Shown one piece after another: positions 24,167 through 46,701 of a stretch of DNA of 64,000 nt. A program made the position numbers and the translations under genes. The notes under the pieces are model-generated. The model had not been told where the DNA came from, made no database searches, and was given only the letters and a program-made list of their open reading frames with translations. Origin of the DNA: an uncultured Acidobacteriota bacterium (GTDB lineage Bacteria > Acidobacteriota > Vicinamibacteria > Vicinamibacterales > UBA2999); contig CAVZXA010000003.1 in the NCBI GenBank assembly GCA_963779175.1, forward strand, positions 257,551-321,550, written 5' to 3'. Position 1 is the stretch's first letter. Each line of letters opens with the position of its first letter.

Positions 24167-24180
24167 CAACCGCGTACCGC

Positions 24181-24405: not shown

Positions 24406-24537
24406 GGCTGGATTCTCCTACAGGAGATAACGCACGCCGCGGCCGGGGGTTCGCGCGCCCGGCGCCACCGGGGCTCCCGCCGATCCGACCGGCGCCTTTC
24501 CGGCGCCGAACGGATGGCAGAGACGACGTCCCGGGTG

Positions 24538-25162: not shown

Positions 25163-25351
25163 ACCAGTCACCACCCACAGGTTTGACGCCGGAGGCGTGC
25201 CGCGGTTCCCGAAACGACACATGACACTCGGAGACATCCCCAGACTACAAATGGCGTCCATCCGCCCGAGGGATTGCTGATTCGGCCGTATACTCAGCGT
25301 GTGTTGGTGTCTGGAATCAGACACTTAGCGCAGGTTGTGCCAGGTGCGCCC

Positions 25352-27843
25352 ATGAAACAGTTCGCGTTCGCCATCGCGATCACGTCCGTCGTCGGGGCCG
25401 GGCTCGCGGTCGCCGCCTTCGAGGGGCAGACGCCGCCGGCCTCGCCCACGCCGGCCGTCAGGTCCACGCCGCCGGCGCCCGCCGCCACGGCCCGTCGCTC
25501 CGCGCCGGTTGCCGCGCCGTCACATGCGTCCGGGCTGTCGGCCGTGTCGCAGACCGAACTCATCACGCAGTACTGCGGCACCTGCCACAGCGAACGCGGT
25601 AGGGCCGGCGGTCTGTCGCTTGCCAACTTCAACGCCATGAAGGCGCACGAGCAGCCCGAGACGGTCGAGAAGATGATCCGCAAGCTGCGCGCCGGCATGA
25701 TGCCGCCCGCCGGATCGAAGCGGCCGGATGCGGCCACCATCGAGGCCCTCACCCTGGCGCTCGAATCGCGGATGGACGAGGTGGCCGGGGTCAATCCGAA
25801 CCCGGGCTGGCGGCCGTTCCAGCGCCTGAATCGCGCCGAATACACCACGGCGGTGAAAGACCTGCTCGGCATCGACGTCGACGTCAGCGCGTTCCTGCCG
25901 GCCGACACCATCAGCGACGGCTTCGACAACGTGGCCGACGCCCAGGGCTTCTCGCCGACGCTGATGGAAGGCTATCTGCGCGCGGCCGGCCGCATCACCC
26001 AGCTGGCGCTCGGCGAGCCGACGGCGGCGCCGACCGAAGCCACCTACAAGGTGCCGCGCACGCAGTCGCAGATGGTGCACATCGAAGGCGCGCCGCTCGG
26101 CACCCGCGGCGGCGTCTCGCTGGTGCACGTGTTCCCGGCCGACGGCGACTACAGCTTCCGCGTGATGCTGCACTCGATTCCCACCGGCGAGCTCTACGGC
26201 AGCACCACCAAAGGCGAGCAGATCGAGATCTCGATCAACGGCGAGCGCGTGGCGGTGATGGACATCAACCCGCGATGAGCGAACGCGACCCCAACGGCAT
26301 GAACCTGGCGACGCCGCGGGTGCACGTCAAGGCCGGCCCGCAGCGCGTCTCGGCCGCGTTCCTGCGGCGCTTCGAGGCGCCGGTGGACGACCTGCTGGCG
26401 CCGCTCGATTACACGCTGGCCGACTCGCAGATCGGCAGCGGCTTCGGCGTCACCACCCTGCCGCACGTGCGCGACTTCAGCGTCAGCGGCCCGTTCGACG
26501 TCACCGGCGTTTCCGAGACCGTGAGCCGCAGGAAGGTCTTCACGTGCCGGCCGACCACGCTGGCCGAAGAAGTGCCGTGCGCGACCGAGATCCTGAAGCG
26601 GATGGCGTCGCAGGCGTACCGCGAGCCGGTCTCGACCGCCGATGTGCAGGGGCTGGTGGCGTTCTACGAGAAGGGCCGCAAGGGCGCGGACTTCGAGGCC
26701 GGCATCCAGATGGCGCTCAGGCCCTGCTGGCCAGCCCGCGCTTCCTGTTCCGTCTCGAGCAGCCGCCGGCGACCGCCCGGGTGGGGCAGACCTTCCAGGT
26801 CGCGGAACTCGATCTGGCGTCGCGCCTGTCGTTCTTCCTCTGGGGCACCGGGCCCGACGAGGAGCTCATCACGGCGGCGACCTCCGGCACCCTGCAAGAC
26901 CCCGGCCGGGATCGACAGGCAGGTGCGGCGGATGCTGGCCGACCCGCGCTCGGAGGCGCTGGCGACCCGCTTCGCTCGCAGTGGCTGCGCCTGCAGGACG
27001 TCGAGAAGATTCGCCCGGATGCGCTGCTCTATCCCAACTGGGACCACACGCTGGCCGAGACCCTCGTGCGCGAGACCGAGCTGTTCTTCGACAGCCTCGT
27101 CCGCGACGACCGCAGCATCCTCGACCTGCTGCGCGCCGACTACACCTTCGTGAACGAGCGCGTGGCGCGGCACTACGGCATCCCGAACGTGATGGGGGCC
27201 GAGTTCCGCCGCGTGCCGACGCCGGCGGGCCGCCGCGGCGTGCTCGGCCAGGGCAGCGTCCTGCTGCTGACCTCGGTGGCCGACCGCACCTCGCCGGTGC
27301 AGCGCGGCAAGTGGGTGATGGAAGTGCTGCTCGGCTCGCCGCCGCCGGCGCCGCCGCCCAACGTGCCGGCGCTCGAAGAGACCGGGGGCGCCAAGGGCGG
27401 CACGCCTGCTGTCGACGCGCGAGCGCATGGAACAGCACCGCGCGAACCCGGCATGCAAGTCGTGCCACAGGGTGATCGATCCGCTCGGCCTCGCGCTCGA
27501 GAACTTCGACGTCACCGGCGCCTGGCGCATCAAGGACAACGAAGTGCCGGTCGACGCGGTCGGCGACCTCTACGACGGCACGAAGATGAACGGCCCGATC
27601 GGGCTCGCGCGACGCGCTGCTGAAGCACAAGGACGTGTTCCTTCTGAGCTTCACCGAGAGCCTGATGACCTACGCGCCTCGGCCGCCGGATCGAGTCGTT
27701 CGACATGCCGGCGGTGCGCAAGATCATCCGCGACGCCGGCCGACAGGACACATCGCATCTCGGCGTTCGTGCTCGGCGTGGTGAACAGCCCGGCGTTCCG
27801 GATGAGCCGCGTCGAAGGCACGGACACGACAACGCGTCAGTAG
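25352..27843 (+). pseudogene. Module A: DUF1592/DUF1588/DUF1595 (PSD/PSCyt) family putative di-heme c-type protein, heavily frame-disrupted (>=8 breaks)
   Basis: It has the signal-like N-terminus MKQFAFAIAITSVVGAGLAVAAF and two CxxCH motifs: CGTCH at 25574-25588 and CKSCH at 27454-27468. It is collinear with intact copies C and D across ORFs 25274-26278, 26275-27153, 26544-27623 and 27427-27843. The first break is a missing g in ...aacccgcg|atgagc at about 26270, where copy D reads aacccgcggatggac. Confidence 0.8.
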
Positions 27844-27869
27844 GCGCAGTCAACGAAAGCCAGCATCTG

Positions 27870-29280
27870 ATGTTCATCACCCAGAAGCACCTCTCGCGCC
27901 GCACGGCTCTCAAGGGCCTCGGCGTCACCATGGCGCTGCCGCTCCTGGAGGCGATGGTGCCGGCGCGCACCGCGCTGGCGCAGACGGCTGCCGGCGGCAA
28001 GGTCCGCCTGGCCGCCATCGAGATGGTGCACGGCTCGGCCGGCGCCACCGTTCGGCCTGCAGAAGAACATGTGGTCGCCGGCGGCCGTCGGCACGCGACT
28101 TCGACCTGACGCCGACGCAGCCTGGCGCCGCTCGAGCCCTTCCGCGACGCCCTGACGATCGTCAGCAACACCGACGTCCGCAACGCCGAGGCGTTCGAGC
28201 TGCCGGAAATCGGCGGCGACCACTTCCGCTCGAGCGCGGTGTTCCTGACGCAGAGCGCATCCGAAGCAGACGCAGGGCTCGCGACGTGCTCGCCGGCACC
28301 TCGCTCGATCAGTTCTACGCGCAGAAGTTCGGCCAGGACACGCCGATTCCGTCGATGCAGCTGTGCATCGAGAACGTCGACCAGGCCGGCGGCTGCGCCT
28401 ACGGCTACTCCTGCGTCTACACCGACACGATCAGCTGGGCCTCGCCCAAAGAGCCGCTGCCGATGATTCGCGACCCGCGCGCCGCCTTCGATCAGCTGTT
28501 CGGCGTCGGCGCTACGCCGGCCGAGCGCGCCACCCGGCGCAGCGCGACAAGAGCATCCTCGACTTCATCACCGGCGAGGTCGCGCGGCTGCGCAAGGACC
28601 TCGGCCCGGCCGACCAGGCCCGCCTCGGCGAGTACCTCGACGACGTCCGCGAGATCGAGCGCCGCATCCAGAAGGTCGAAGCGTCGAACTCGAGCGGCGA
28701 GCCGCGCGAGCTGCCCGGCGCGCCGGTGGGCGTGCCCGACGCGTTCGACGAGCACGTCAAGCTGATGTTCGACCTGCAGGCGCTGGCGTTCGCCTCCGAC
28801 ATCACCCGCGTGTTCTCGTTCAAGATGGGCCGCGACGGCTCGAGCCGCGTCTATCCGGAAAGCGGCGTCAACGCCGGCTTCCACCCGGCGTCGCACCATC
28901 AGGACCGCGAAGAGCGCATCCGCGACTTCGCGAAGATCAACACGCTACCACGTCGCGCATGCTGCCGTACTTCCTCGACAAGCTGAAGAACACGCCCGAC
29001 GGCGAGCAGCACCCTGCTCGACAACACGCTGATCATCTACGGCTCGCCGATGGGCAACTCGAACGTGCACAACCACAAGCGCTGCCCGCTGTTCTTCGCC
29101 GGCCACGCCGGCGGCGCGCTGAAGGGCGGCCTGCACATCAAGGCCGCCGACGGCACGCCGATGGCGAACGCGATGCTCGGCGCCATGCACCTGCTCGGGC
29201 TGTCCGACGTGAAGACGTTCGGCGACAGCACGGGCGTGACGGATCTGAACGCGGCGCCCGAGGCGACCGCGGCCTTCTAG
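27870..29280 (+). pseudogene. Module A: Tat-signal DUF1552 (HxxSHH) family protein, frame-disrupted (>=6 breaks)
   Basis: The N-terminus is MFITQKHLSRRTALKGLGVTMALPLLEAMVP. Later pieces lie in ORFs 28286-28765, 28363-28986 (which contains FHPASHHQDRE) and 29050-29280 (MGNSNVHNHKRCPLFFAGHAGG). All are collinear with copy D. Confidence 0.8.
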
Positions 29281-29295
29281 CTCGGAGACACGGCG

Positions 29296-31064
29296 ATGCA
29301 GTTTCGACTGGAACAGTCCCTGATGCGTGGCGTCGCCCTGGTGGGTGCCGCCGTTCTGGTGCTTGCCGCGACGCTCGGCGCGCAGTCGGCGGCAGTCGCC
29401 GATGCGGCGATGGGCGGCGATCGCGCAGCGGTGAAGGCGCTGCTGAAGCAGGGCAGCGACGTCAACGCGGCCCAGGGCGACGGCATGACCGCGCTGCACT
29501 GGGCGGCGATGAACGGCGACGCCGAGCTGGCGCAGATGCTGGTCTTCGCCGGCGCCAACGTGAAGGCGACGACGCGGCTGGGCGGCTACACGCCGCTCAT
29601 CATCGCCGCCCGCAACGGCCACGCGCCGGTGGTGGAGGTGCTGCTCAAGGCCGGCGCCGACGCGAAGGCCGCCACCTCGACCGGCACCACGCCGCTGATG
29701 CTGGCCGCCGCCTCGGGCAGCGTCGAGGCCGTGAAGGCGCTGCTCGGCGGCGGCGCCGACGTCGAGGCGAAGGAACGTCGATGCAGCAGACGCCGCTGAT
29801 GTTCGCCGCGGCCAACAACCGCGTCGAGGTCATGAAGGCGCTGATCGCGGCCGGCGCCAACGTGAAGGCGACGTCGAAGGTCGTGAACATCTCGACGCTG
29901 ACCTCGCCGGAAGAGGAGTTCTTCGCGCAGCAGGCGGCCCAGCAGCGGCCCGCGGCCGCGCCCGGCACCGCGCCGGCACCCGGCGCCCCTGCCGCCGCGG
30001 CCGCGCCCGCCGGTGGCGGTGGCGGCCGGCGTGGTCCGCAGACCGGCAAGGCCGGCGTCGAACGCAACTACCGCTACAACGAGCTGGTCGGCTCGCAGGG
30101 CGGCATGACGCCGCTGCTCTTTGCCGTGCGCCAGGGCTCGATGGACGCCGTCAAGGCGCTGCTCGAGGCCGGCGCCGACGTCAACCAGGTGAGCGGCGGC
30201 GACAAGACCAGCCCGCTCGTGATCGCCATCGTCAACGGCCACTTCGATCTGGCGCTGCACCTGCTCGACAAGGGCGCCAACCCCAACACGGTCAGCGACA
30301 ACGGCGTGGCGCCGCTCTACGCCGTGCTGAACGTGCAGTGGGCGCCCAAGGCGCTCTATCCGCAGCCGCGGGCGTACCTGCAGCAGAAGACCACCTATCT
30401 CGACACGATGAAGGCGCTGCTCGACAAGGGCGCCGACCCGAACGCGCGCCTCAAGTGCAAGGTGTGGTACTCGGGCTACAACTTCGATCTGTCGGGCGTC
30501 GACGAGATCGGCGCCACGCGTTCTGGCGCGCCGCCTACGCCTGCGACGTCGAGGCGATGAAGATGCTGGTCGCGGCCGGCGCCGACCCCAACATCCCGAC
30601 CACCAAGCCGGCCGGGCGTCCGCGCGTCGGCGACGCCGGCGTCGCGTGAAGGCGGCGACACCTCCAATGCGCCGCCGCTGCCGGTGGGCGGCCCCGGCGT
30701 CACGCCGCTGCAGGCGGCGGCCGGCGTCGGCTACGGCGAGGGCTTCGCCGCCAACTCGCACCGCTATGCGCCGAGCGGCATGCTGGCCGCCGTGAAGTAC
30801 CTGGTCGAGGAGCTCGGCGCCGACGTCAACGCCGCCGACCACGAAGGCAACACCGCCCTGCACCAGGCGGCGGCGCGCGGCGACGTCGCGATGATCGTAT
30901 ACCTGGTGTCGAAGGGCGCCGATGTGACGCGCGTGAACCGCGAAGGGCAGACCACGGCCGACATGGCCAACGGCCCCGTGCAGCGCACGCAGCCGTATCC
31001 CGAGGCGCTCAAGCTGCTCGAGAAGCTCGGCTCGAAGAACAACCACAAGTGCGTGTCGTGCTAG
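29296..31064 (+). pseudogene. Module A: secreted ankyrin-repeat protein, three frame breaks (about 29775, 30517, 30640)
   Basis: The hydrophobic N-terminus is [25 protein letters not shown] repeats are visible (GDGMTALHWAAMNGDAELAQMLVFAGANV, GYTPLIIAARNGHAPVVEVLLKAGAD ...). The C-terminus is ...LLEKLGSKNNHKCVSC*. Confidence 0.8.
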
Positions 31065-31111
31065 ACGCCGCGGACGCGGCGGCACGACGGCGAAACGGCA
31101 GGCCACGAGTC

Positions 31112-33651
31112 ATGACGAGACGACGACTGACAGCAACAGCCGCCGGCGCCGCCGTGGCCCTGGCCCTGGGCCTCGCCGTGCGCGCCGAACAGGCGGCGAC
31201 GCCCACCGCGCCGGCCCCGGCCGAAGCCGCTGCCGCCCGGCCCGCTGTCAGCCGTCCGCGCCCGGCCGCCGCCCCGGCAGCGTCGCACACCCCTGGCGCC
31301 GTGCCGCTCACCGCGGCGGGGCAGACCGAGCTCGTGACGACGTATTGCGCTACCTGCCATAGCGAACGCGCCAAGGCCGGCGGGCTGTCGCTGGCCAACT
31401 TCACCGCCATGCGCGCCCAGGAACAGCCCGAGGTGGTCGAGAAGATCATCCGCAAGCTGCGCGCCGGCATGATGCCGCCGGCAGGCGCGAAGCGGCCCGA
31501 TGCCGCCACCATCGACGCGCTCACAGCGGCGCTCGAATCGCGCATGGACGAACACGCGGCGACCAATCCGAATCCCGGCTGGCGTCCGTTCCAGCGTCTG
31601 AACCGCGCCGAGTACACGCGCGCGGTCCGCGACCTGCTCGGCGATCGAGGTCGATGTCACCGCCTTCCTGCCGGCCGACACCATGAGCCACGGCTTCGAC
31701 AACGTCGCCGACGTGCAGGGCATGTCGCCGACGCTGATCGAAGGCTACATGCGCGCGGCCAGCCAGATCAGCCGGCTCGCCGTGGGCGACCGCGACGCCA
31801 CGCCGGCCGCCGCCACCTACAAGGTGCGGCCGCACGATGTCGCAGATGCGCCAGCTCGAAGGCGCGCCGATGGGCACCCGCGGCGGCATCGTCGTGACGC
31901 ACATCTTTCCGGCCGATGGCGACTACGTGATCGGCGTGAACCTGCACAACGAGCCGCTCGGCGGCCTCTACGGACGCTCGACGATGAGCGTCATGAGTCT
32001 CAAGGAAGAGATCGACGTGGCCATCGACGGCCAGCGCGTGGCGGTGATTGCGCTCAACGAGCGGATGAGCGAGTCGGACGCCGCCAACAGCCTCGATCCG
32101 AAGACCGCGCGCATCCACGTGACGGCCGGGCCGCACCGGGTGTCGGCGGCCTTCATCCAGCGCTTCGAAGCGCCGCTCGACGACCTGCTGGTGCCGACCG
32201 AGAACACGCTGGCCGATGTCAGCATGAGCTACGGCGTGACGCTGCTGCCGCACCTGCGCGACATGACGGTCAACGGGCCCTATGCGGTGACCGGCGTGTC
32301 GGATTCGGTGAGCCGCCGCCGCATCTTCACCTGCCGGCCGACCTCGGCGGCGGAAGAGCCGGGCTGCGCCGGCGAGATCATCGGGTCGATCGCCGGGCGG
32401 GCGTTTCGCGGCCCGGTACCGCAGGCCGACCTCGACACCCTGATGGGCTTCTACACCGACGGCCGGAAGAAGGGCGACTTCGAGCACGCCATCCGTTACA
32501 CGCTGCAGGCCATTCTCGCCAGCCCGCGCTTCGTGTTCCGGCTCGAGGAAGTGCCGACGACGATGCGCGCCGGCCAGCCATTCCGCCTGAACGATCAGGA
32601 TCTGGCCTCGCGGCTGTCGTTCTTCCTGTGGGGCACGGTGCCCGACGCCGACCTGCTCAAGGCCGCCGCCGCCGGTCATCTGCGCACGCCGGTGGCGCTG
32701 AAGAAGCAGGTCGAGCGGATGCTCGCCGACCCGCGCTCGGAATCGCTGGCGACGCGCTTTGCCGCGCAGTGGCTGCGCCTGCAGGACCTCGACAAGATCA
32801 TCCCCGACTACCTGCAGTATCCGCACTACGACGACACGCTGGCCCAGGGCCTGCGGCGCGAGACGGAACTGTTCGTCGACAGCCTGCTGCGCGACAACCG
32901 CAGCGTGCTCGACCTCATCGAGAGCGACTACACGTTCGTGAACGAGCGCGTGGCGATTCACTACGGCATCCCGAACGTGACGGGCAACGCCTTCCGCAAG
33001 GTCGCGGTGACCGACCCGAACCGGCGCGGCATCCTCGGCCACGGCAGCGTGCTGGCGCTCACCTCGATCGCCGACCGCACCTCGCCGGTGCTGCGCGGCA
33101 AGTGGATCATGGAAGTGCTGCTCGGTTCGCCGCCGCCGGCGCCGCCGCCGAACGTGCCGGCGCTCGACGACACCAAGGACACCAGGGGCGGCCGCACCCT
33201 GTCGGTGCGCGAGCGCATGGAACAGCACCGCGCCAACCCCTCCTGCATGTCGTGCCACAAGGTGATCGACCCGCTGGGCCTCGCGCTCGAGAACTTCGAC
33301 GTCACCGGCGCCTGGCGCATCAAGGACAACGAGGTCGGTGTCGACCCGGTGGGCGACCTCTACGACGGCACCCGGCTCGATGGACCGGCCGGCCTGCGGG
33401 CGGCGCTGCTGCGCCACAAGGACGCCGTGCTGCTGAGCTTCGCGGAGCACCTCATGACCTATGCGCTCGGACGCCGCGTCGAGCCCTACGACATGCCGGC
33501 CATCCGACAGATCATCCGCGAGGCGGCGGCCAACAACTACAAGGTGCAGACGTTCGTGCAGGGAATCGTGGCCAGCCAGGCCTTCAGAATGACCCGGATC
33601 GACGCGCCGGAGACCACAACGATGGCCCCGGCGGCCGTCGCGAGACACTGA
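31112..33651 (+). pseudogene. Module B: DUF1592/PSD-family putative di-heme protein, two frame breaks (about 31641, 31835)
   Basis: The N-terminus is MTRRRLTATAAGAAVALALGLAV. The two CxxCH motifs are YCATCHSERAKAGGLSLANF and NPSCMSCHKVIDPLGLALENFD. The pieces lie in ORFs 31049-31897, 31683-... and 31837-33651 and are collinear with copies C and D. Confidence 0.85.
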
Positions 33652-33728
33652 CGCAGGACCCGGTGGCCTTGGGGTCTGGCCCCAGAACGAATCGTCACGG
33701 GCCTGTCCCCGAGTTAGGATCTGACCAC

Positions 33729-35130
33729 ATGTTCATCACCCAGAAGCACTTGTCCCGGCGCGCGGCCCTGAAGGGTCTGGGCGTGACCGTGGCCCTGCCG
33801 TTCCTCGAGGCCATGGTGCCGGCGCGGACGGCGCTGGCGCAGACCGCCGCCGGCAAGGTGCGGCTGGCCTGCATCGAGATGGTGCACGGCTCGGCCGGCA
33901 GCACCGCCTTCGGGATCAAGCAGAACATGTGGGCGCCGGCGGCCGCCGGCAGGAGCTTCGACCTCACGCCGTCGGCCCTGCAGCCGCTCGAGCCGCTGCG
34001 CGACTACCTCACCATCATCAGCAACACCGACGTCAAGAACGCCGAGGCGTTCGAGCTGCCGGAAATCGGCGGCGATCACTTCCGCTCGAGCGCGGTGTTC
34101 CTGACCCAGCAGCACCCCAAGCAGACGCAGAGCTCCGACGTCCACGTCGGCACCTCGCTCGACCAGTACTACGCGCAGAAGTTCGGCCAGGACACGCCGA
34201 TCCCGTCGATGCAGTTCTGCATCGAAAACGTCGACGCGGCCGGCGGCTGCTCCTACGGCTACTCGTGCGTCTACACCGACACCATCAGCTGGTCGTCGCC
34301 GACCGACCCGATGCCGATGATTCGCGATCCGCGGGTGGCCTTCGACCAGCTCTTCGGCGTCGGCGCCACGCCGCGGGCGCGGGCCGAACGGCGCGCCGAA
34401 GACAAGAGCATCCTCGACTGGATCACGTCCGACGTCGCGCGACTGAAGAAGGACCTCGGCGCCGCCGACCAGGCGCGGCTGGGCGACTATCTCGACGACG
34501 TCCGCGAGATCGAGCGGCGCATCCAGAAGACCGAGTCGTTCAACAGCAGCGGCGAACAGCGCGAGCTGCCCGGCGCCCCGGTGGGCGTGCCCGACTCGTT
34601 CGAAGAGCACATCAAGCTGATGTTCGACCTGCAGGCGATCGCGTTTGCCAGCGACATCACCCGCGTCTTCTCGTTCAAGCTGGGCCGCGACGCCAGCAAC
34701 CGCGTCTTCGCCGACAGCGGCGTGAAGACCGGCGTTCCACTCGGCGTCACACCATCAGGACCGCGACGATCGGATCCGCGACTTCCAGAAAATCAACCAC
34801 TACCACATCGGGATGATTCCCTACTTCCTGAACAAGTTGAAGGCGACGCCCGACGGCGAACGCAACCTGCTCGACAACACACTGGTGCTCTACGGCTCGC
34901 CGATGGGCAACTCGAACGTCCACAACCACAAGCGCTGCCCGCTGTTCCTGGCCGGGCACGCCGGCGGGGCGCTGAAGGGCAACATGCACATCAAGGCGGC
35001 CGACGGCACGCCGATGGCCAACGCCATGCTGAGCGTGCTGCACACGCTCGGCCTGAACGACTTCACGTCGTTTGGCGACAGCACCGCTGCGATGGACCTG
35101 AACTCGGCGCCGGCGCCGACCGCTATTTAG
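33729..35130 (+). pseudogene. Module B: Tat-signal DUF1552 (HxxSHH) protein, one frame break near 34735
   Basis: MFITQKHLSRRAALKGLGVTVALPFLEAMVP... is read in the frame of ORF 31683-35270 up to ...ADSGVKTG. The gene then continues in the frame of ORF 34813-35130 (FHSASHHQDRDDRIRDFQKINHYHIGMIPYFLNKLK..., read by me from 34737 on). Confidence 0.85.
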
Positions 35131-35242
35131 GCGGGTCTCGGGTCCCGGGGCTCGGGATCGCCCTTCGCGACATTCGGCATCACCGGTGGCACTCGGGCCG
35201 CCGCGCACGACGGAACGACGAACGCGGACGGAGAGGACACGC

Positions 35243-37780
35243 ATGCAGCGGAGCGCGACAGCGGTCCTGACGGCCGCGACGATAGGGCTGACACTCGCAG
35301 GACTTGCTGCCGCAGGCGACCGCGCCCCGCAGGCGTCCACGGCTGCGCGGCCGGCCGCATCTGCTGCCCGCACGCCCACCGCGCCCGCCGCTCCGCGATC
35401 CACCGCACCCGCACGGCGCGCGGGGGTGCCGGCCAGACCCGCCACGCACGCGCTCAGCCCGGCCGCGCAGACGGAGCTGGTGGCCACCTACTGCGCTACC
35501 TGCCACAGCGAACGCGCGAAAGCGGGCGGGCTGTCGCTGGCGGGCTTCAACGCCATGCGGGCGCAGGAGCAGCCCGAGGTGACCGAGAAGATCGTGCGCA
35601 AGCTGCGCGCCGGCATGATGCCGCCGGCCGGGGCGAAGCGTCCGCCGGCCGGCGCCCTCGAGGATCTCACCGGCGCTCTCGAAGCGCGGATGGATGAACA
35701 CGCCGCCGCCAACCCCAATCCCGGCTGGCGTCCGTTCCAGCGTCTGAACCGGGCCGAATATGCGCGCGCGGTCAACGACCTGCTCGGCGTGACGCTGGAT
35801 GTGGCGCCGCTGCTGCCGCCCGACACCATCAGCCACGGCTTCGACAACGTGGCCGACGCCCAGGGCTTCTCACCGGCGCTGCTCGAAGGCTACCTGCGGG
35901 CGGCCAGCCGCGTGACGGCGCTGGCGGTCGGGGATCCCGATAGTGCGGCCGGCGAATCCACCTACTCGCTGCCCAAGACCGCCTCGCAGCTGTCGCGGGC
36001 CGAGGGCGCGCCGCTCGGCACTCGCGGCGGCGTCTCGGTGATGCACACCTTTCCGGCCGACGGCGACTACACCTTCCGCATGGATTTCTTCGCCGAGCCG
36101 CTCGGCATGCTGTTCGGCAACACCGCCACCGGCGAGCAGATCGAGGTCTCGATCAACGGCGAACGCGTCGCCATCTTCGACATCGATCCGCGGATGAACG
36201 AGACCACCTCGAGCCTGTCGCTCAAGACCGCGCCGGTGCACGTGCAGGCCGGCCCGCAGCGGGTGACGGCGGCCTTCCTGCAGCGCTTCGAAGGTCCGGT
36301 CAACGATCTGGTGGCGCCGATCGATCACACGATGGCCGACACCGAAATCGGCATCGCCGTCGGCATCACCACGCTGCCGCACCTGCGTAACCTCGCGGTG
36401 GTCGGGCCGCACGCGGTCACCGGCGTCTCCGACACGGCGAGCCGGCGGAAGATCTTCACCTGCCGGCCCACCAGCGGCGGCGACGAGGCGGCCTGCGCCG
36501 ATGCGATCATCCGCGGCCTGGCCACCCGGGCCTTTCGGCGGGCGCCGAGCGAGCGCGAATTCACGCGTCTGCTGCGCTTCTACGAGAGCGGTCGCCGCGG
36601 CGAATCGTTCGAGCGCGGCGTGACCAAGGCGGTCGAGGCCATTCTGGCCAGCCCGCAGTTCCTGTTCCGCCTCGAGGACACGCCGGCGACGGCCCGTCCC
36701 GGTCAACCGTATCGCCTGGCCGATGTCGAACTGGCGTCGCGTCTGTCGTACTTCGTGTGGGGCGCCGCTCCGGACGAGCCGCTGCAGCAGCTCGCCTCGC
36801 AGAATCGCCTCAGCGCCCCCGGCGCCATCGAGGCCCAGGTCACGCGCCTGCTGGCGGACCCGCGCGCCGACGCGCTCTCGACCCGCTTCGCCTCGCAGTG
36901 GCTGCGTCTCCAGGACCTCGACGACGTCTCGCCCGACCCGATTCTCTATCCCTACTACGACCGCACGCTGGCGCAGGCGCTGCAGACCGAGACCGAACTC
37001 TTCGTCGCCAGCCTGGTGCGCGAGAACCGCAGCGTGCTCGACCTGCTCACCGCCGACTACACCTTCGTGAACGAGCGGGTGGCGCGCCACTACGGCATCG
37101 GCGGCGTCACCGGCTCGCAGTTCCGGCGGGTGGCGCTGCCGGCCGAGCGCCGCGGCGTGCTCGGCCACGCCAGCGTGCTGACGCTCACCTCGATCGCCGA
37201 CCGCACCTCGCCGGTGCAGCGCGGCAAGTGGATCATGGAGGTGCTGCTCGGCTCGCCACCCCCGGCGCCGCCGCCCAACGTGCCCGCGCTCGAAGACACC
37301 AAGGGCACGAGCGACGGCAAGGTGCTGTCGGTGCGCGAGCGCATGGAGACGCACCGGAAGAACCCGGCGTGCATGTCGTGCCACAAGGTGATCGACCCGC
37401 TCGGCCTGGCGCTCGAGCACTTCGACGCCACCGGACGCTACCGCATCAAAGACGCCGGCGTGCCGGTGGATGCGGTCGGCGACCTCTACGACGGCACGAA
37501 GATGGCTGGCGCCGACGGGCTGCGCGGCGCCCTCATGAAGCACAAGGACGCGTTCCTGCTCAGCTTCACCGAGCACCTCATGACCTACGCGCTCGGGCGC
37601 CGCGTCGAGGCCTCGGACATGCCGGCCGTGCGAGCGGTGATCCGCGCCGCGTCGCGCCAGAACTACCGCATCTCGGCGTTCGTGCAGGGCGTGGTCGCAA
37701 GCGACCCGTTCCAGAAGAGCATCATTCGGACCGCCGCGCCGACAGATCACGGAAGAAGCGCGGCGAGACGTAGCGGCTAG
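35243..37780 (+). CDS. Module C: DUF1592/PSD-family putative di-heme c-type protein (intact)
   Basis: The ATG at 35243 is preceded by ggagagg. The product begins MQRSATAVLTAATIGLTLAGLAAAG. The two CxxCH motifs are YCATCHSERAKAGGLSLAGF and NPACMSCHKVIDPLGLALEHFD. The ORF is uninterrupted to 37780. Confidence 0.88.
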   Translation: MQRSATAVLTAATIGLTLAGLAAAGDRAPQASTAARPAASAARTPTAPAAPRSTAPARRAGVPARPATHALSPAAQTELVATYCATCHSERAKAGGLSLAGFNAMRAQEQPEVTEKIVRKLRAGMMPPAGAKRPPAGALEDLTGALEARMDEHAAANPNPGWRPFQRLNRAEYARAVNDLLGVTLDVAPLLPPDTISHGFDNVADAQGFSPALLEGYLRAASRVTALAVGDPDSAAGESTYSLPKTASQLSRAEGAPLGTRGGVSVMHTFPADGDYTFRMDFFAEPLGMLFGNTATGEQIEVSINGERVAIFDIDPRMNETTSSLSLKTAPVHVQAGPQRVTAAFLQRFEGPVNDLVAPIDHTMADTEIGIAVGITTLPHLRNLAVVGPHAVTGVSDTASRRKIFTCRPTSGGDEAACADAIIRGLATRAFRRAPSEREFTRLLRFYESGRRGESFERGVTKAVEAILASPQFLFRLEDTPATARPGQPYRLADVELASRLSYFVWGAAPDEPLQQLASQNRLSAPGAIEAQVTRLLADPRADALSTRFASQWLRLQDLDDVSPDPILYPYYDRTLAQALQTETELFVASLVRENRSVLDLLTADYTFVNERVARHYGIGGVTGSQFRRVALPAERRGVLGHASVLTLTSIADRTSPVQRGKWIMEVLLGSPPPAPPPNVPALEDTKGTSDGKVLSVRERMETHRKNPACMSCHKVIDPLGLALEHFDATGRYRIKDAGVPVDAVGDLYDGTKMAGADGLRGALMKHKDAFLLSFTEHLMTYALGRRVEASDMPAVRAVIRAASRQNYRISAFVQGVVASDPFQKSIIRTAAPTDHGRSAARRSG

Positions 37781-37800
37781 GGCCTAACGGCTGGCGGCTA
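37771..37800. repeat. Short GCGGCTAG-type intergenic repeat (single arm)
   Basis: The sequence tagcggctagggcctaacggctggcggcta lies across the module C DUF1592 stop codon (37778-37780) and the first 20 nt after it. It is related to the strings at 43483, 62942 and 63058. Confidence 0.5.
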
Positions 37801-37831
37801 AACGAGACCACGGTTCAGGGATATCGAGCTC

Positions 37832-39246
37832 ATGGCAACCTTCTCTCGACACAGAAGCATCTCTCGCGGCGCGCGGCCCTCAGGGGCATCGGGGCCACCG
37901 TGGCCCTGCCGTTCCTCGACGCGATGCTGCCGGCCTCCACCGCCTACGCGAAGGTGGCCGACCGCAAGGTGCGCCTCATCGCGCTCGAGATGGTGCATGG
38001 CGCGGCGGGCAGCACCACCTACGGCGCGAAGCTGAACCTGTGGGCGCCGGCGGCGACCGGCAGCGGCTTCGACCTCGCGCCCACGGCGATGGCGGCGCTC
38101 GAGCCCTACCGCGACTACCTGACGATTGTCAGCAACACCGACTGCCGCAATGCCGAGGCGTTCAGCGCGCCGGAAATCGGCGCCGACCACTTCCGCTCGG
38201 CGGCGGTGTTCCTCACGCAGGCCAAGCCGAAGCAGACGCAGGGCTCGGACGTCTTCGCCGGCACCTCGTTCGATCAGATCGTGGCCAGGCAACACGGGCA
38301 GGAGACGCCGATTCCGTCGATGCAGCTCTGCATCGAGAACGTCGACCAGGCGGGCGGCTGCTCCTACAACTACTCGTGCGTCTACACCGACACCATCAGC
38401 TGGGCCTCGCCCACCGAGCCGCTGCCGATGATCCGCGATCCGCGCTCGGTCTTCGATCAGCTGTTCGGCGTGGGCACCACGCCCGAGGCGCGGCGCTCGC
38501 GCCGCAAGGACGACCGCAGCATCCTCGACTTCGTCGCCGAGTCCGTCGGCGACCTGAAAGGACGGCTGGGCGCCGCCGATCGCGCCCGCCTCACCGAATA
38601 CCTCGACGACGTGCGCGAGATCGAGCGCCGCATCCAGAAGGTCGAGGGCCAGAACTCGAGCGGCGACGCCCGCGAACTGCCCGGCGCGCCGATCGGCGTG
38701 CCCGACTCGTGGGAAGAACACGTCAAGCTGATGTTCGACCTGCAGGTGGTGGCGTTTGCCAGCGACGTCACGCGCAACTTCGCCTTCAAGCTGAGTCGCG
38801 ACGTGAGCAACCGGGTGTTCGGGCCCACCAGTTCCCAGACGGCGTTCCATACCGCGTCGCACCACCAGGAACGCGAAGACCGCATCAAGGACTTCCAGAA
38901 AATCAACGTCTATCACGTGAGCCTCATCCCGTATCTGCTGGGCAAGCTCAAGGCGACCCCCGACGGCGACGGCAACCTGCTCGACAACAGCCTCGTCGTC
39001 TACGGCTCGGCGATGGGCAACTCGAACATGCACAACCACAAGCGCTGCCCGCTGTTCTTCGCCGGGCATGCTGGTGGACGCCTCAAGGGCAACCTGCACA
39101 TCAAGGCGGCCGACGGCACGCCGATGGCCAACGCGATGCTGCCGGCACTGCAGGCACTCGGCGTCGACCTGGCGAGCTTTGGCGACAGCACTGGTGCGCT
39201 CGATCTGAACCGCGCCGTCGACACGACGGCGGCGGTGGAGGCGTAG
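37832..39246 (+). pseudogene. Module C: Tat-signal DUF1552 (HxxSHH) protein. It is intact except for a probable 1-nt indel within the first roughly 15 nt
   Basis: The body is in-frame from 37846 (STQKHLSRRAALRGIGATVALPFLDAMLP...FHTASHHQERED...HNHKRCPLFFAGHAGG). The only ATG (37832) is in the +1 frame, and there is no in-frame start back to the TAG at 37771. Confidence 0.8.
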
Positions 39247-39250: not shown

Positions 39251-40978
39251 ATGCCACGACGCGTGCACGGGGGCGTTGCCCTCCTGGTGACGCTGGCGGC
39301 GTGCGGCGCCTGGCTGCAGGCGGCGGCGCCCGATCCCGGACGAAGCGCGGTGGCCGACGCGGCCATGCGCAAAGACGTCGAGGCGGTGCGCGCGCTGGTG
39401 CGGCAGGGTGGCGACGTCAACGCGGCGCAGGGCGACGGCATGACCGCGCTGCACTGGGCCGCGACCCATGGCGACGCGCCGCTGACCGAGATCCTGCTCT
39501 ATGCCGGCGCCAACGTGAAGGCGACCAGCCGTCTCGGACGCTACACGCCGCTCCACGTCGCCAGCCAGGGAGGCGCCGCGGCGGTGGTCACGGCGCTGCT
39601 GGCACGCGGCGCCGAGGCCGATGCGACCACCACCACCGGCGCGACGGCGCTGATGTTCGCGGCGCAGGCCGGCCACGTGCCGACCGTCACGGCGCTGCTC
39701 GATGCCAAAGCCGACGTGAACGCGACGGAGCAGGCGCACGGCCAGACCGCGCTCATGTTCGCGGCCACGGCCGATCGCGCCGACGTCGTCACGCTGCTGG
39801 TCAGCCGCGGCGCCAGAACGGACGTGACGTCGAAGGTCGTCGATCTCGCGGCGCTCACCCAGGGCGACGGCGAAGGGCGGCCACCCGAGCCGCAGACCGG
39901 CGGACAGGATCAGGCCCGCGGCGGCGGACCGGCAGCGGCGCCGGCCCGGCCCGGCGCCGCGTCCCACCGACGTGGCCGGCGCCACGCGGCCCTATCGCTA
40001 CAACGAGCTCATCGGCGCGCAGGGCGGGCTGTCGGCGCTGCACTTCGCCGCGCGTCAGGGCGCGTTCGCCGCCGCCCGCGCCGTCGTCGAGCGCGGTGGC
40101 AACGTCAACCTGAAGAGTCCCGGTGACGGCACGACGCCGCTGCTCATCGCGACGCTGAACGGCCACTTCGATCTGGCGCGGTATCTGGTCGAACACGGCG
40201 CCGATCCCAACCTCACGAGCCGCGCCGGCGCGGCGCCGCTGTATGCGGTGCTCAACGTGCAGTGGGCGCCCAAGGCCGCCTATCCGCAGCCGCGCGCCTA
40301 CCTGCAGCAGCGCACCGGCTACCTCGAGCTGATGACGCTGCTCCTCGACAAGGGCGCCGATCCGAACGCACGCCTGACGCGCAAGGTCTGGTACTCGGGC
40401 TACAACTTCGACCAGTCGGGCGTCGACGAGATCGGCGCCACGCCGTTCTGGCGCGCCGCCTACGCCAGCGACGTCACGGCGATGCGCCTGCTGGTGGCGC
40501 GCGGTGCCGACCCGCACATTCCGAGTGTGCGGCCGGCCGAGCGCACGCGCGGCCTCGATGGCGTCGGCGAGCTGCGCGACGTCTCGGCCCTGCCCGCCGT
40601 GCCGGTGGGCGGCCCCGGCATCCCGGTGCTGCACGCCGTGGCCGGCGTCGGCTACGGGAAGGGCTTCGCCGGCAACTCGCACGTGTTCGCGCCGACCGGC
40701 ATGATGGCCGCCGTGACCTACCTGGTCGAGGAACTGGGCGTGGACGTCAACGCCATCGACTACGAAGGCAACACGGTCGTGCACCATGCGGCCTCGCGCG
40801 GCGACACCGAGATGATCAAGTACCTGGTGGCGAAGGGGGCTGATGTCACCCGCGTGAACCGCGCCGGCCAGACCACCATCGACCTGGCGAATGGCCCGGT
40901 GCAGCGCGTGCAGCCGTTCCCCGAGACCATCGCCTACCTCGCGTCGCTCGGTGCGAAGAACAACCACAAGTGCGTCTC

Positions 40979-40985
<7 letters not shown>
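39251..40985 (+). pseudogene. Module C: secreted ankyrin-repeat protein, one frame break near 39965
   Basis: The N-terminus is MPRRVHGGVALLVTLAACGAW (signal/lipobox-like). ANK repeats lie in ORF 39251-40126. The gene continues in ORF 39972-40985 (...YRYNELIGAQGGLSALHFAARQGAF...). The C-terminus is ...LGAKNNHKCVSC*. Confidence 0.85.
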
Positions 40986-43482
<2,497 letters not shown>

Positions 43483-43483
<1 letters not shown>

Positions 43484-43536: not shown

Positions 43537-44940
43537 ATGTTCATCTCGCAGAAACACCTCTCTCGGCGCACCATGCTTCGCGGCGTCGGTGCCACCGTGG
43601 CTCTGCCGTTCCTCGAGGCGATGGTGCCGGCACGTACCGCCTACGCGAAGAGCGCGGCGGCCGGGAAGGTGCGCTTTGCCGCCATCGAGATGGTGCATGG
43701 CTCGGCCGGCGCCACCGTGGTCGGCACCGCGAAGCACATGTGGTCACCGGCCGCGACCGGGCGGGCGTTCGATCTCGGCCCCACCTCCATGCGCGCGCTC
43801 GAGCCCTTCCGCGACCACCTGACCATCATCAGCAACACCGACGTCCGTAATGCCGAGGCGTTCGAACTGCCAGAAATCGGCGGCGACCACTTCCGCTCGA
43901 GCGCGGTGTTCCTCACCCAGGCCCACCCCCGCCAGACGCAGGGCTCGGACGTGCGCGCCGGCACCTCGATCGATCAGCACTACGCGCAGAAGTACGGGCA
44001 GGAGACGCCGATTCCGTCGATGCAGCTGTGCATCGAGAACGTCGACCAGGCCGGCGGCTGCTCCTACGGCTACTCCTGCGTCTACACCGACACCATCAGC
44101 TGGGCCTCGGCCGAAGAGCCGCTGCCGATGATCCGCGACCCGCGCGTGGCCTTCGATCAGCTGTTCGGCGTCGGCGCCACGGCCGAAGAGCGGGCGGTGC
44201 GGCGCAAGGAAGACAAGAGCATCCTCGACTGGGTCACCACCGAGATCGCGCGGCTGCAGAAGACGCTGGGCCCGGTCGACCGCGCCCGGCTCACCGACTA
44301 CCTCGACGACATCCGCGAGATCGAGCGGCGCATCCGCAAGGTCGAGACCCTCAACAGCAGCGGCGAGCAGCGGGCGCTGCCGGGCGCGCCGATCGGCGTG
44401 CCGGACAGCTTCGGCGAACACGTGAAGCTGATGTTCGACCTCCAGGCGGTGGCGTTTGCGAGCGACCTCACGCGGGTGTTCTCGTTCAAGATGGGCCGCG
44501 ATGCCTCCGGCCGCGTCTATCCCGAGAGCGGCGTCACGACCGGCTTCCATCCGGCCTCGCACCACCAGGGCCGCGAAGACCGGGTGACGGAGTTTGCGAA
44601 GATCAACGCCTATCACGTCAGCCTGATTCCGTATTTCCTCGACAAGCTGAAGAACACGCCCGAAGGCGACGGCACGCTGCTCGACCAGACGCTCGTGATG
44701 TACGGCTCGCCGATGGGCGATTCGAACGTGCACAACCACAAGCGGTGCCCGCTCTTCCTCGCCGGACATGCCGGCGGGCAACTGCGGGGCCAGACGCACA
44801 TCAAGGCGGCCGATGGCACGCCGATGGCCAACGCGATGCTGTCGGTGGGACAGCTGCTCGGGCTGGATCTGCCGTCGTTCGGCGACAGCACCGCGGCCAT
44901 GGACCTGAACGCCGCGGTCGAGACCACGGCGGCGAAGTAG
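43537..44940 (+). CDS. Module D: Tat-signal DUF1552 (HxxSHH) family protein (intact)
   Basis: The ATG at 43537 is preceded by ggag at 43524-43527. The twin-arginine leader is MFISQKHLSRRTMLRGVGATVALPFLEAMVP. The HxxSHH motif HPASHH is at 44548-44565. HNHKRCPLFLAGHAGG lies near the C-terminus. Confidence 0.9.
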   Translation: MFISQKHLSRRTMLRGVGATVALPFLEAMVPARTAYAKSAAAGKVRFAAIEMVHGSAGATVVGTAKHMWSPAATGRAFDLGPTSMRALEPFRDHLTIISNTDVRNAEAFELPEIGGDHFRSSAVFLTQAHPRQTQGSDVRAGTSIDQHYAQKYGQETPIPSMQLCIENVDQAGGCSYGYSCVYTDTISWASAEEPLPMIRDPRVAFDQLFGVGATAEERAVRRKEDKSILDWVTTEIARLQKTLGPVDRARLTDYLDDIREIERRIRKVETLNSSGEQRALPGAPIGVPDSFGEHVKLMFDLQAVAFASDLTRVFSFKMGRDASGRVYPESGVTTGFHPASHHQGREDRVTEFAKINAYHVSLIPYFLDKLKNTPEGDGTLLDQTLVMYGSPMGDSNVHNHKRCPLFLAGHAGGQLRGQTHIKAADGTPMANAMLSVGQLLGLDLPSFGDSTAAMDLNAAVETTAAK

Positions 44941-44950: not shown

Positions 44951-46648
44951 ATGACGATGCGACGACTGGCTGGAACCTGGGTGACCGCGGGTCTCGTGGT
45001 CGGACTCGTGTCGATGACTGGGGCCGGCGTGGAGGGCCGCCGCCGCACGATCGCCGATGCCCCCGTGGCTGATGCCGTGATGCGCGGCGACACCGCCGGC
45101 GTGCGTGCGATGCTGCGCGCCGGTGCCGACGTGAACGCGGCGCAGGGCGACGGCATGACCCCGCTGCACTGGGCGGCGATGAAGGGTCAGGCCGAGATCG
45201 CCTCGATACTGCTCTATGCCGGTGGCAGCCACGCGGCCACCACCCGCCTCGGCGGCTACACGCCGCTCCACCTGGCCGCCCGGGCCGGCAGCGCGCCGAT
45301 CGTGGACGCGCTGGTCGCCGCCGGCGCCAACGTCAAGGCCACGACCTCGTCTGGTGCGACCGCGCTGATGCTGGCGGCCGAGTCGGGCACGCTCGCCGCG
45401 GTGCGCCGCCTCGTGTCTGCCGGCGCCGACGTCAACGCGGTGGAGCAGGCCAAAGGCCAGTCGGCGCTGATGTTCGCCGCCGCCTTCGACCGCGCGGATG
45501 TCGTGGCGTTCCTGCTGGCGCAGGGGGCCGACCACCGGCGCGCCACCACGGTCGTGGATCTGGCGACGCTCACCGCCTCCACCGAACCGGCGGCGCCGCG
45601 GCGGCCGGGCACGGCTGCGGCGAACGCGCCGCAGATTGCCGGCCTGACCCGCCAGTTCCGCTACAACGAGCTCATCGGCACGCAAGGCGGTCTCACAGCG
45701 CTGCTCTTTGCCACCCGCGAAGGCTACGCGGCGTCGGCGACGGCGCTGCTGGCCGGTGGCGCCGACGTCAATCAGGTGAACCCCGGCGATGGCACGAGCC
45801 CGCTGCTCATGGCGGTCATCAACGGCCACTTCGACCTCGCCATGCAGTACCTGGCCAAGGGAGCGGACGTGTCGCGCACCGCGGCCAACGGCGCGGCGCC
45901 GCTCTACGCCACGCTCAACCATCGCTGGGCGCCGAAGTCGCAGTATCCCAATCCGAAGGGCTATCAGCAGCAGACGACGTCGTACCTGCAGATGATGCAG
46001 GCGCTCCTCGACCAGGGCGCCGACCCCAATGCGCGCATCCGGAAGAAGGTCTGGTATCAGGCGTTCAACTCCGACTTCGCCGGGGTGGACGAGATCGGCG
46101 CCACGCCGTTCTGGCGCGCCGCCTACGCCAGCGATGTCGAGGCGATGCGGCTGCTCGTGAAATACGGCGCTGATCCCCACATTCCGACGGTGAAACCGGC
46201 CGGACGCCCCTTCACCGGCGACGGCATCCGCCAGACCACGGATGTCTCGAACATCCCGCCGGTGCCGGTGGGCGGGCCGGCCGTGCCGCCGCTGCTGGCG
46301 GCGTCCGGTGTGGGCTACGGCGAGGGCTTCGCCGCCAACTCGCATCGCTACGCCGAGACCGGCTTCCTGCCTGCCATCAAGTACCTGGTCGAAGAGGTCG
46401 GGGCGGACGTGAACGCGGTGGACCACGAAGGCAACACGGCCGTGCATCTGGCTGCCTCGCGCGGCGACAACGCCTCGATCGAATACCTGGTCTCGAAGGG
46501 CGCCGTCGTCACGACCGTGAACCGCGAGGGTCAGACCACCGCGGACATGGCCAACGGCCCGGTGCAGCGCACGCAGCCCTACCCGGCGACGATTGCGCTG
46601 CTCGAGAAGCTCGGCGCGACCAACAACCACAAGTGCGTGTCGTGCTGA
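44951..46648 (+). CDS. Module D: secreted ankyrin-repeat protein (intact, 565 aa)
   Basis: The hydrophobic N-terminus is LAGTWVTAGLVVGLVSMTGAG. There are several ANK repeats in the N-terminal third, a Pro/Ala linker, and more ANK-like repeats after it. The C-terminus is ...LLEKLGATNNHKCVSC*. Confidence 0.9.
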   Translation: MTMRRLAGTWVTAGLVVGLVSMTGAGVEGRRRTIADAPVADAVMRGDTAGVRAMLRAGADVNAAQGDGMTPLHWAAMKGQAEIASILLYAGGSHAATTRLGGYTPLHLAARAGSAPIVDALVAAGANVKATTSSGATALMLAAESGTLAAVRRLVSAGADVNAVEQAKGQSALMFAAAFDRADVVAFLLAQGADHRRATTVVDLATLTASTEPAAPRRPGTAAANAPQIAGLTRQFRYNELIGTQGGLTALLFATREGYAASATALLAGGADVNQVNPGDGTSPLLMAVINGHFDLAMQYLAKGADVSRTAANGAAPLYATLNHRWAPKSQYPNPKGYQQQTTSYLQMMQALLDQGADPNARIRKKVWYQAFNSDFAGVDEIGATPFWRAAYASDVEAMRLLVKYGADPHIPTVKPAGRPFTGDGIRQTTDVSNIPPVPVGGPAVPPLLAASGVGYGEGFAANSHRYAETGFLPAIKYLVEEVGADVNAVDHEGNTAVHLAASRGDNASIEYLVSKGAVVTTVNREGQTTADMANGPVQRTQPYPATIALLEKLGATNNHKCVSC

Positions 46649-46701
46649 CGGCCTGACACGGCGCGCGCGGCGCCGGTCGCCGATGTCTCGTGGAGGGCTC
46701 G

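Follow-up and report, generated by a model that had tools for sequence, protein, structure and literature searches.

A conserved C-terminal Cys pair in a predicted periplasmic ankyrin protein encoded with PSCyt/PSD cytochromes and DUF1552 proteins

We analysed a stretch of 64,000 nucleotides (nt) from an uncultured Acidobacteriota bacterium (GenBank assembly GCA_963779175.1, contig CAVZXA010000003.1, positions 257,551 to 321,550 of the forward strand; hereafter the window, G+C 70.9%), in which three genes for ankyrin-repeat proteins (copies A, C and D) end with codons for the same peptide, NNHKCVSC. The window holds four modules, A to D, in each of which a cytochrome gene (P, product of ~840 amino acids (aa)) is followed by a gene for a DUF1552 protein (T, ~467 aa) and then by the ankyrin gene, the latter being missing from module B (Table 1). 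The PSD3-PSD5-PSD4-PSCyt3-PSD2 domains of P and the DUF1552 domain of T all score above the Pfam gathering thresholds in modules C and D. The genes are tightly packed, with 10 nt between the end of T in module D (T_D) and the start of ankyrin copy D, and the start of the cytochrome gene of module D (P_D; GTG at 40970 or ATG at 40979) overlaps the Cys-Val-Ser-Cys-stop codons of ankyrin copy C (40970-40985). It is therefore probable that successive modules are translationally coupled in one long operon.

Table 1 Features of the ankyrin-bearing modules, in window coordinates.
Feature	Position	Strand	Basis
Ankyrin copy D, 565 aa, the only intact copy	44951..46648	+	Uninterrupted open reading frame; only Ank families by Pfam
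Signal-peptide-like N-terminus of copy D (MTMRRLAGTWVTAGLVVGLVSMTGAG...)	44951..45040 (3' boundary approximate)	+	n-region, hydrophobic core and c-region (n/h/c) organisation; model residues 1-33 with predicted local distance difference test score (pLDDT) <50
NNHKCVSC and TGA stop of copy D	46622..46648	+	C562 and C565 invariant in the homologue alignment
Ankyrin copy A, frame broken at least three times, ends NNHKCVSC-stop (31038-31064)	29296..31064	+	
Ankyrin copy C, one frame change in a Gly/Pro/Ala-rich linker (39898-39969), ends NNHKCVSC-stop (40959-40985)	39251..40985	+	
P_D, exported dihaem c-type cytochrome	40970..43483	+	Pfam PSCyt1/cbb3-like, PSD3, PSD5, PSD4, PSCyt3, PSD2
Non-haem Cys pair of P_D, Cys408...Cys419, FTCRPx10CA, in the PSD5 domain	42191..42226	+	
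T_D, DUF1552 (HXXSHH) protein, Tat signal SRRTMLRG at nt 43561-43584	43537..44940	+	Pfam and motif
Module C: P_C 35186/35243-37780, T_C about 37837-39246	35186..39246	+	Cytochrome and DUF1552 genes
Module A: P_A 25373-27831, T_A 27861-29274, both with several frame changes	25373..29274	+	tblastn segments in alternating frames
Module B: P_B 31289-33651, T_B 33729-35124, both frameshifted, without a following ankyrin gene	31289..35124	+	

A six-frame search of the window for HKCxxC returned exactly three matches, all on the + strand and each immediately followed by a stop codon (ending at 31064, 40985 and 46648), in agreement with the original prediction, made from the sequence of the window, that NNHKCVSC is the C-terminus of ankyrin copies A, C and D alike. 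Up to the stop, the C-terminal tails read ...LLEKLGSKNNHKCVSC in copy A, ...YLASLGAKNNHKCVSC in copy C and ...LLEKLGATNNHKCVSC in copy D. The last 24 nt before the stop (AACAACCACAAGTGCGTGTCGTGC) are identical in copies A (31038-31064) and D (46622-46648), as had been noticed, against a background identity of 81% between the final 300 nt of the two genes; copy C departs from this sequence at two sites, both synonymous. A longer shared pattern that included L[LA][ES][KS]LG upstream of this end was confirmed for the NNHKCVSC part but does not fit copy C exactly, which reads YLASLG. Similarly, the gene span proposed for copy D is an uninterrupted reading frame, but those of copies A and C are frame-broken, their lengths (1769 and 1735 nt) not being multiples of three. 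Cys562 and Cys565 are the sole cysteines of copy D. The motif is not a chance occurrence, because the mature part of copy D (~535 residues) holds just these two cysteines and the pair recurs in nearly all homologues; the exceptions among the homologues examined are one small Cys-less clade and a few scattered representatives of 50%-identity clusters.

Conservation of this terminus was analysed in loci from a one-genome-per-species scan (>445 confirmed loci, 80 kept) and from a metagenome scan (80 more distant loci). Nearly all of the 80 kept species-representative loci bear the label Acidobacteriota (Vicinamibacterales/Vicinamibacteria) or Gemmatimonadota (Longimicrobiales, Gemmatimonadales), phyla being assigned from the record titles of metagenome-assembled genomes (MAGs); the source organisms are environmental MAGs only, from soil, freshwater, groundwater and marine samples. 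All of the best 120 database homologues of copy D (64-98% identity) keep the motif LGAxN[NH][HR]xC[VI][ST]C, two of them with one extra residue, and 99 of the 120 have no further Cys in the mature protein. In the fetched loci, the CxxC is present in 187/187 ankyrin genes that are readable to the stop, forming the exact C-terminus in 176 and being followed by 1-14 residues in the remaining 11. When 50%-identity cluster representatives were searched with the C-terminal half of the protein, the CxxC was found in most, and in true members down to about 41-45% identity. The presence of the CxxC throughout the family means that its sharing by the three window copies is not merely the result of recent duplication.

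In the 176 genes that end with the motif, the successive positions are occupied by N (172), N (167), H (138), N (31) or D (7), K (108), R (41) or N (25), C (176), V (138), K (16), I (11) or L (8), S (156), T (14), G (4) or I (2), and C (176). The H-K that precedes the CxxC, and which had been described as invariant from the three window copies, is thus not so in the family, with His in 78% of the genes (Asn 18%, Asp 4%) and Lys in 61%. The conserved core is N-N-x-x-C-x-[ST]-C, with LG[AS]xNN[HND]xCx[ST]C as the fuller consensus. Codons vary at every position of the motif, with TGC or TGT for Cys, four codons for Val, TCN and AGC for Ser, and all three stops. Since synonymous codons and stop codons vary so freely, the constraint lies on the peptide, and the pattern points to strong selection that acts, in both Acidobacteriota and Gemmatimonadota, on the C-terminal peptide rather than on the DNA. 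The original suggestion that the terminal CxxC is a functional site is therefore supported by conservation at the peptide level, and the motif, as judged by its conservation and predicted setting, is a genuine functional site, conserved widely, in the third and so far undescribed subunit of a periplasmic system that is itself uncharacterised. In a subgroup (loci L032, L033, L035, L036, L103 and L117; proteins P0441, P0482, P0484, P0494, P0498 and P0500), the motif is followed by a conserved extension rich in Lys and Ala, ...CVSCD[KNT]AVAKA[TA]G[AD]RK, which means that the last Cys need not have a free carboxylate.

The N-termini of copy D homologues show a basic n-region, a 12-residue hydrophobic core and small c-region residues, with ~25-35 aa before the first repeat (motif PVADAAM). 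A signal-peptide heuristic built on this n/h/c organisation was passed by 218 of the 238 full-length homologues, most failures looking like mis-called starts. The heuristic and the gene context together predict that the ankyrin is exported via a Sec-type signal peptide. The whole P-T-ankyrin module is likewise predicted to be periplasmic, because P needs the periplasmic haem-attachment machinery and T uses the Tat pathway. Even an uncleaved N-terminal segment would place the ankyrin body outside the cytoplasm, because the positive charges lie at the extreme N-terminus (positive-inside rule). An alternative allowed for in the original prediction, that the hydrophobic segment is a cytoplasmic-facing anchor, is made unlikely by the prevalence of the Sec-like organisation and by partners that are periplasmic by their own signals. 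The LAAC string previously pointed out in copy C is indeed there, as part of LVTLAAC, a formal lipobox in its signal peptide (39251-39340); a lipobox-like string occurs in only 1/120 close homologues.

Pfam detected only Ank families in copy D (Ank, Ank_2 and Ank_4), with Ank at 186.7 bits against a cut-off of 21.1. The AlphaFold2 (AF2) model of copy D (pLDDT 79.8, predicted TM-score (pTM) 0.80) shows a single extended solenoid, with about 12 repeats and conserved loop insertions, and the folds that it matches best are those of 12-repeat fragments from eukaryotic ankyrins (TM-score up to 0.8, target-normalised). The loop insertions (residues 328-334, 373-375, 419-443 and 456-469) are invariant in sequence and modelled at low confidence, which would be typical of surfaces that become ordered upon partner binding. 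The last helix of the model ends at residue 553; pLDDT is ~90 for residues 551-560 and <50 for residues 563-565. In the model, the Cys pair thus sits on an exposed tail, 3-5 residues long, that follows the last capping helix directly. A loop of four residues at the end of the chain would not be able to staple distant parts of the fold together or to stabilise the solenoid. Pfam and NCBIfam gave no match to a thioredoxin-fold oxidoreductase (Dsb, TlpA or ResA types), the motif being in coil after the capping helix, and Pfam gave no match to a heavy-metal-associated (HMA; MerP/CopZ) domain, the local sequence being NNHKCVSC at the chain end rather than GMxCxxC. NCBIfam holds no model for P, T or the ankyrin family, and the ankyrin obtained only sub-threshold generic matches there.

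Several other roles for the tail were considered and rejected. Attachment of a c-type haem (CXXCH) does not fit, as the chain ends at the second Cys and the sole nearby His precedes the first. The V-S-C end formally fits a substrate for C-terminal Cys decarboxylation of the kind seen with ribosomally synthesised and post-translationally modified peptides, but the protein has 565 aa, is predicted to be exported and is not encoded beside a flavoprotein gene. A C-terminal sorting signal would have a hydrophobic segment after the motif, and there is none. The likeness between NHKC in the tail and the invariant HNHKRCP of T was judged to be a four-residue coincidence.

Of the two partners, P_D has a signal peptide and two CXXCH haem motifs, YCANCH (aa 84-88) and ACQSCH (aa 709-713). 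T_D carries, besides its twin-arginine motif SRRTMLRG, the invariant segments IEMVHG, SNTD, FHPASHHQ and HNHKRCP and a Cys cluster, Cx9Cx5C. The AF2 model of T is of moderate quality (pLDDT 67.6, pTM 0.79). Five Foldseek matches of this model in the PDB reach E <=1e-3, and all of these, as well as essentially all weaker listed matches, belong to the alkaline-phosphatase superfamily; they are sulfatases, phosphonate monoester hydrolases, LtaS-type enzymes and one alkaline phosphatase, matched weakly (E 5e-4 to 1e-2, TM 0.3-0.4). On this modelled fold, T is probably a distant member of the superfamily. Sequence searches of the PDB with P and T returned no matches.

The P-T-ankyrin order holds in essentially every locus with enough flank, and adjacent PSCyt/PSD and DUF1552 genes were found in about 160 fetched loci. 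Modules are often tandemly repeated, and the arrays (the window at 31289-35124; L012, L014, L017, L020 and others) mix P-T-ankyrin modules with ankyrin-less P-T pairs, so that one ankyrin may serve several P-T pairs or may be dispensable for some. Alignment of T proteins with and without a downstream ankyrin showed no discriminating column and no Cys difference. The P-T pairs of Planctomyces and Chondrinema have neither an ankyrin nor the Cys pair of P. A P-T pair lies on plasmid NZ_CP117882.1 of a cultured alphaproteobacterium, Novosphingobium sp. KACC 22771 (L168, 4990-10047), followed, in an unannotated stretch of the record, by a gene for a 444-aa ankyrin with a signal peptide (8713-10047); this protein is only distantly similar, ends ...QAGQASPAT and has no Cys pair. 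On plasmid pMSHV of Sphingobium herbicidovorans (L171, 5734-9880), a P-T pair is followed by genes for a small cytochrome c and a cytochrome b, with no ankyrin, and an electron-transfer role of the P-T pair is therefore supported.

The Cys-less clade of ankyrins (P0153, P0391, P0399 and P0412) ends NNH[KR]AVS[KR], both Cys being replaced and the rest of the motif kept. The two tail Cys thus behave as a pair, kept or lost together. Loci of this clade were found by exact-sequence look-up, and every relative returned by a metagenome scan with the Cys-less P0153 as its seed had the CxxC. In the three loci obtained, the Cys-less ankyrin still follows P and T. The gene for P is complete in two of them (the contigs of two other Cys-less representatives, P0150 and P0192, are too short for cytochrome genes), and in both (L165 4554-6965 and L166 6122-8539) P keeps its two CXXCH motifs and has lost the non-haem pair, C408 being replaced by R or A and C419 by I or V. 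T keeps its three conserved Cys in all three loci, and the more variable Cys165 is Ser in one. The Cys pair of P is kept in 100/100 P beside CxxC-bearing ankyrins and in 9/9 P of ankyrin-less pairs, and the nearest CxxC-bearing relative of the Cys-less clade (ankyrin 60% and P 62% identical) has kept all four Cys. This pattern of loss is suggestive of a functional link between the Cx2C of the ankyrin and the Cx10C of the cytochrome, as a thiol pair or a metal site. The Cys-less member P0412 (L166 10001-12799) is a protein of 932 aa in which tetratricopeptide (TPR) repeats are inserted between the ankyrin blocks.

The class of explanation we prefer, tentatively and at close to an even chance, is a reversible dithiol/disulfide that works with the Cys pair of P, because a loop at the chain end would not stabilise the fold and because the co-loss points to P. 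The ankyrin solenoid, through its invariant loop insertions, would bind P and/or T in the periplasm and would present the terminal Cx2C as a working thiol pair rather than as a fold-stabilising bridge. The dithiol/disulfide would exchange with, or sit against, the Cx10C pair in the PSD5 domain of P, and could in this way connect the two-electron chemistry of the thiols with the one-electron haems, or act as a gate on the enzyme.

Several points weigh against this dithiol reading. The co-loss is seen in two loci that are related, and it probably goes back to a single evolutionary event. P also has its Cys pair where there is no CxxC-bearing ankyrin, in the nine ankyrin-less P-T pairs, the Sphingobium cluster and the Novosphingobium pair, and the pair is therefore not dependent on the ankyrin. 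Moreover, P-T pairs occur without any ankyrin in Planctomycetota and Bacteroidota, which makes the ankyrin an accessory. A redox-active CxxC usually lies in a thioredoxin fold, where it begins a helix; the CxxC of the ankyrin is outside such a fold and not at a helix N-terminus. The contact of the tail with P or T is itself putative. Finally, a lineage that lost Dsb-dependent disulfides could present the same picture, in that the Sec-exported P and ankyrin would lose their Cys and the Tat-exported T would be exempt.

The nearest alternative to the dithiol reading is a four-Cys metal site shared between the ankyrin and P. In this explanation, which we consider unlikely in its general form, (H/N/D)-x-C-x-x-C would bind Zn, Cu or Fe, either as a clasp with the Cx10C of P or as a metallochaperone tail that loads the His site of T (HxxSHH, HNHK). 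Two invariant thiols beside a position restricted to H, N or D would suit a metal, although Asn, which takes the place of His in 18% of the genes, is a poor ligand. The modelled tail is flexible, as in many metallochaperones, and T has invariant His clusters and the predicted fold of a metalloenzyme superfamily; Tat substrates, however, usually receive their cofactors before export. Loss of all four Cys together in the ankyrin and P is what a shared site would give, but the Cys pair of P is present in other lineages without a CxxC partner, and no known metal-binding fold or Pfam metal domain was detected. Inter-chain zinc sites are formed from short Cys motifs in the Rad50 zinc hook and the CD4-Lck zinc clasp, and the ZAS anti-sigma motif is HxxxCxxC. 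As in the hook and the clasp, the exposed CxxC could make up a site of four ligands together with two Cys on a second chain, an arrangement with which the joint loss in the ankyrin and P is compatible. These examples are all cytoplasmic, and the spacing here is HxCxxC, not the HxxxCxxC of the ZAS motif.

A passive terminal disulfide is likewise improbable in our view. Here DsbA would oxidise the tail to a small loop that serves as a rigid recognition knob or as a shield from tail-specific proteases, with no redox or metal chemistry. This would be in keeping with the oxidising periplasmic setting, with the loss of the Cys as a pair and with the tolerance of an extension after the motif in 11/187 genes. 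It would also accommodate the Cys-less clade, in which the co-loss of a probable disulfide in the Sec-exported P, with the Tat-exported T keeping its Cys, fits a lineage that abandoned Dsb-dependent disulfides. Against this, conservation in 187/187 genes, with constrained N-N and S/T neighbours and over at least two phyla by their MAG record titles, exceeds what would be expected of a protective cap, and the loop would not stabilise the solenoid.

We regard it as very unlikely that the tail is a substrate-carrier arm, in which a terminal Cys would carry an S-sulfonate or persulfide made by the cytochrome and hydrolysed by the sulfatase-like T. The Sox carrier SoxY is partnered by SoxZ, and its swinging arm is a Gly-rich C-terminal motif, GGCGG. 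In the Sox system, the c-type cytochrome enzyme SoxAX and the metallohydrolase SoxB act with a carrier whose Cys lies on a swinging arm (PMC5336275); a dihaem cytochrome, a sulfatase-like fold and a Cys tail would be the parallel here. SoxY and the ankyrin would share a functional Cys on the short arm of a periplasmic protein whose partners are a c-type cytochrome enzyme and a metallohydrolase (PMC5336275), but the likeness is one of analogy: the folds differ, Pfam and NCBIfam gave no homology to Sox proteins, and SoxY needs a single Cys where the ankyrin tail has two invariant ones. The P-T pairs without an ankyrin, in other phyla and in neighbouring modules, also speak against a carrier. An extended form of the idea, which we give a similarly slim chance, would make the ankyrin the protein-borne thiol cofactor of a new periplasmic enzyme system, in which the dihaem cytochrome would oxidise or load the Cx2C and the sulfatase-fold DUF1552 protein would unload it. 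A possible cycle would start with the disulfide and sulfite giving an S-sulfonate, continue with hydrolysis to sulfate and end with re-oxidation of the dithiol through the haems. If true, the thiol-cofactor reading would mean that the logic of a SoxYZ-like carrier had been reinvented on an ankyrin scaffold, and it would provide a first functional handle on the very large uncharacterised PSCyt/PSD-DUF1552 families.

There is next to no likelihood that C-V-S-C is a CaaX box farnesylated by a eukaryotic host, which the original prediction had mentioned as speculation and ranked below a periplasmic CxxC. Legionella AnkB is injected by the type IV Dot/Icm system and has no Sec signal. It uses a C-terminal CaaX motif and acts in the host cytosol (PMC2916131, PMC5506055). 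AnkB and the protein studied here are both ankyrin-repeat proteins that end C-x-x-C/X, ankyrin repeats are common in effectors, and the last four residues formally fit C-x-x-X. However, the family described here has an N-terminal Sec-type signal (predicted), is operon-linked to periplasmic haem and Tat proteins and is known only from environmental MAGs. Its a2 position is not aliphatic (S 156, T 14, G 4 and I 2 of 176), the final residue of the motif is always Cys, both Cys are invariant, and further residues follow the motif in 11/187 genes. NCBIfam models of Legionella Ank effectors scored far below their cut-offs (e.g. 94.9 vs 600 bits). The ranking given originally is thus supported by the conservation, the signal-peptide features and the periplasmic partners.

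That the motif has no function, its identity reflecting recent duplication or gene conversion, or a constraint on the DNA such as an overlapping start or a terminator, is hardly credible: the 24 nt shared by copies A and D and the overlap of the 3' end of copy C with the next cytochrome start codon would suit it, but it is refuted by the retention of the CxxC in 187/187 genes with varying codons and stops and by its presence, at overall identities of 40-60%, in genomes of two phyla; nor does a downstream gene overlap copy A or copy D.

Among characterised proteins, a counterpart of the ankyrin is AnkB of Pseudomonas aeruginosa, which we take to be much shorter and without a terminal CxxC. In the passage of PMC12754779 that cites Howell et al. 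2000, AnkB, encoded in the katB-ankB operon, is a periplasmic ankyrin-like protein needed for full activity of the catalase KatB. As described there (PMC12754779), AnkB resembles the family studied here in being a periplasmic ankyrin-repeat protein that is co-transcribed with, and accessory to, a haem enzyme; the two are set apart by description, AnkB having a catalase as its partner and our family a PSCyt/PSD cytochrome and a DUF1552 protein. By its predicted export, fold and tail, the family described here belongs with periplasmic ankyrin accessory proteins, to which it adds a thiol site at the C-terminus. That PSCyt3 genes are paired with a family of unknown function had already been remarked upon, the function being described as unknown (PMC5615132). 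P and T of the window belong by Pfam to the planctomycete-type PSCyt3/PSD and DUF1552 pairs, far above the gathering thresholds, but are unlike the ankyrin-free pairs of Planctomyces and Chondrinema. In the searchable literature on the DUF and PSCyt names, functional studies were not found, and neither a third gene, for an ankyrin, nor its motif is mentioned. Few families have expanded as much as PSCyt/PSD cytochromes and their DUF1552/DUF1501 partners in Planctomycetota, Verrucomicrobiota, Acidobacteriota and Gemmatimonadota. The ankyrin variant adds a third subunit with a sharply defined, mutable two-Cys site, which offers an experimental entry to this large family, and it represents a well-supported case of a bacterial ankyrin, predicted to be exported, that would serve housekeeping periplasmic chemistry rather than host manipulation.

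The sequence of the window contains numerous frame changes. Copy A is interrupted near 29775-29787 and twice more around 30510-30600, and the single change in copy C lies between 39898 and 39969, inside its low-complexity linker. Modules A and B together contain about 11 frame changes in 10 kb. The genes for malate synthase (50238-51611) and the methionine sulfoxide reductase PMSR (24005-25324) match only parts of their Pfam profiles. Frame changes are spread over 24005-25324, 25373-35124 and 50238-51960 and are not confined to the ankyrin genes, and no in-frame nonsense decay is evident in the frame-changed genes of the window. Elsewhere, 161/167 complete homologous genes are intact; of the six that are short, four belong to long-read style 'contig_' assemblies. 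Because the damage is window-wide and the homologous genes are intact elsewhere, the frameshifts are probably indel errors of a long-read assembly rather than marks of pseudogenes. In T_C, no ATG, GTG or TTG was found in frame upstream of the Tat motif (37774-37900; ...GNLLSTQKHLSRRAALRG); this protein carries Leu at the position of the Met of T_D, reflecting either a sequence error or a non-canonical start. Since no permease follows the module in other genomes, the MacB/FtsX-type permease gene that lies 3' of module D (46690-49104), and that is also present in the two closest relatives (L001 and L164), is probably outside the module.

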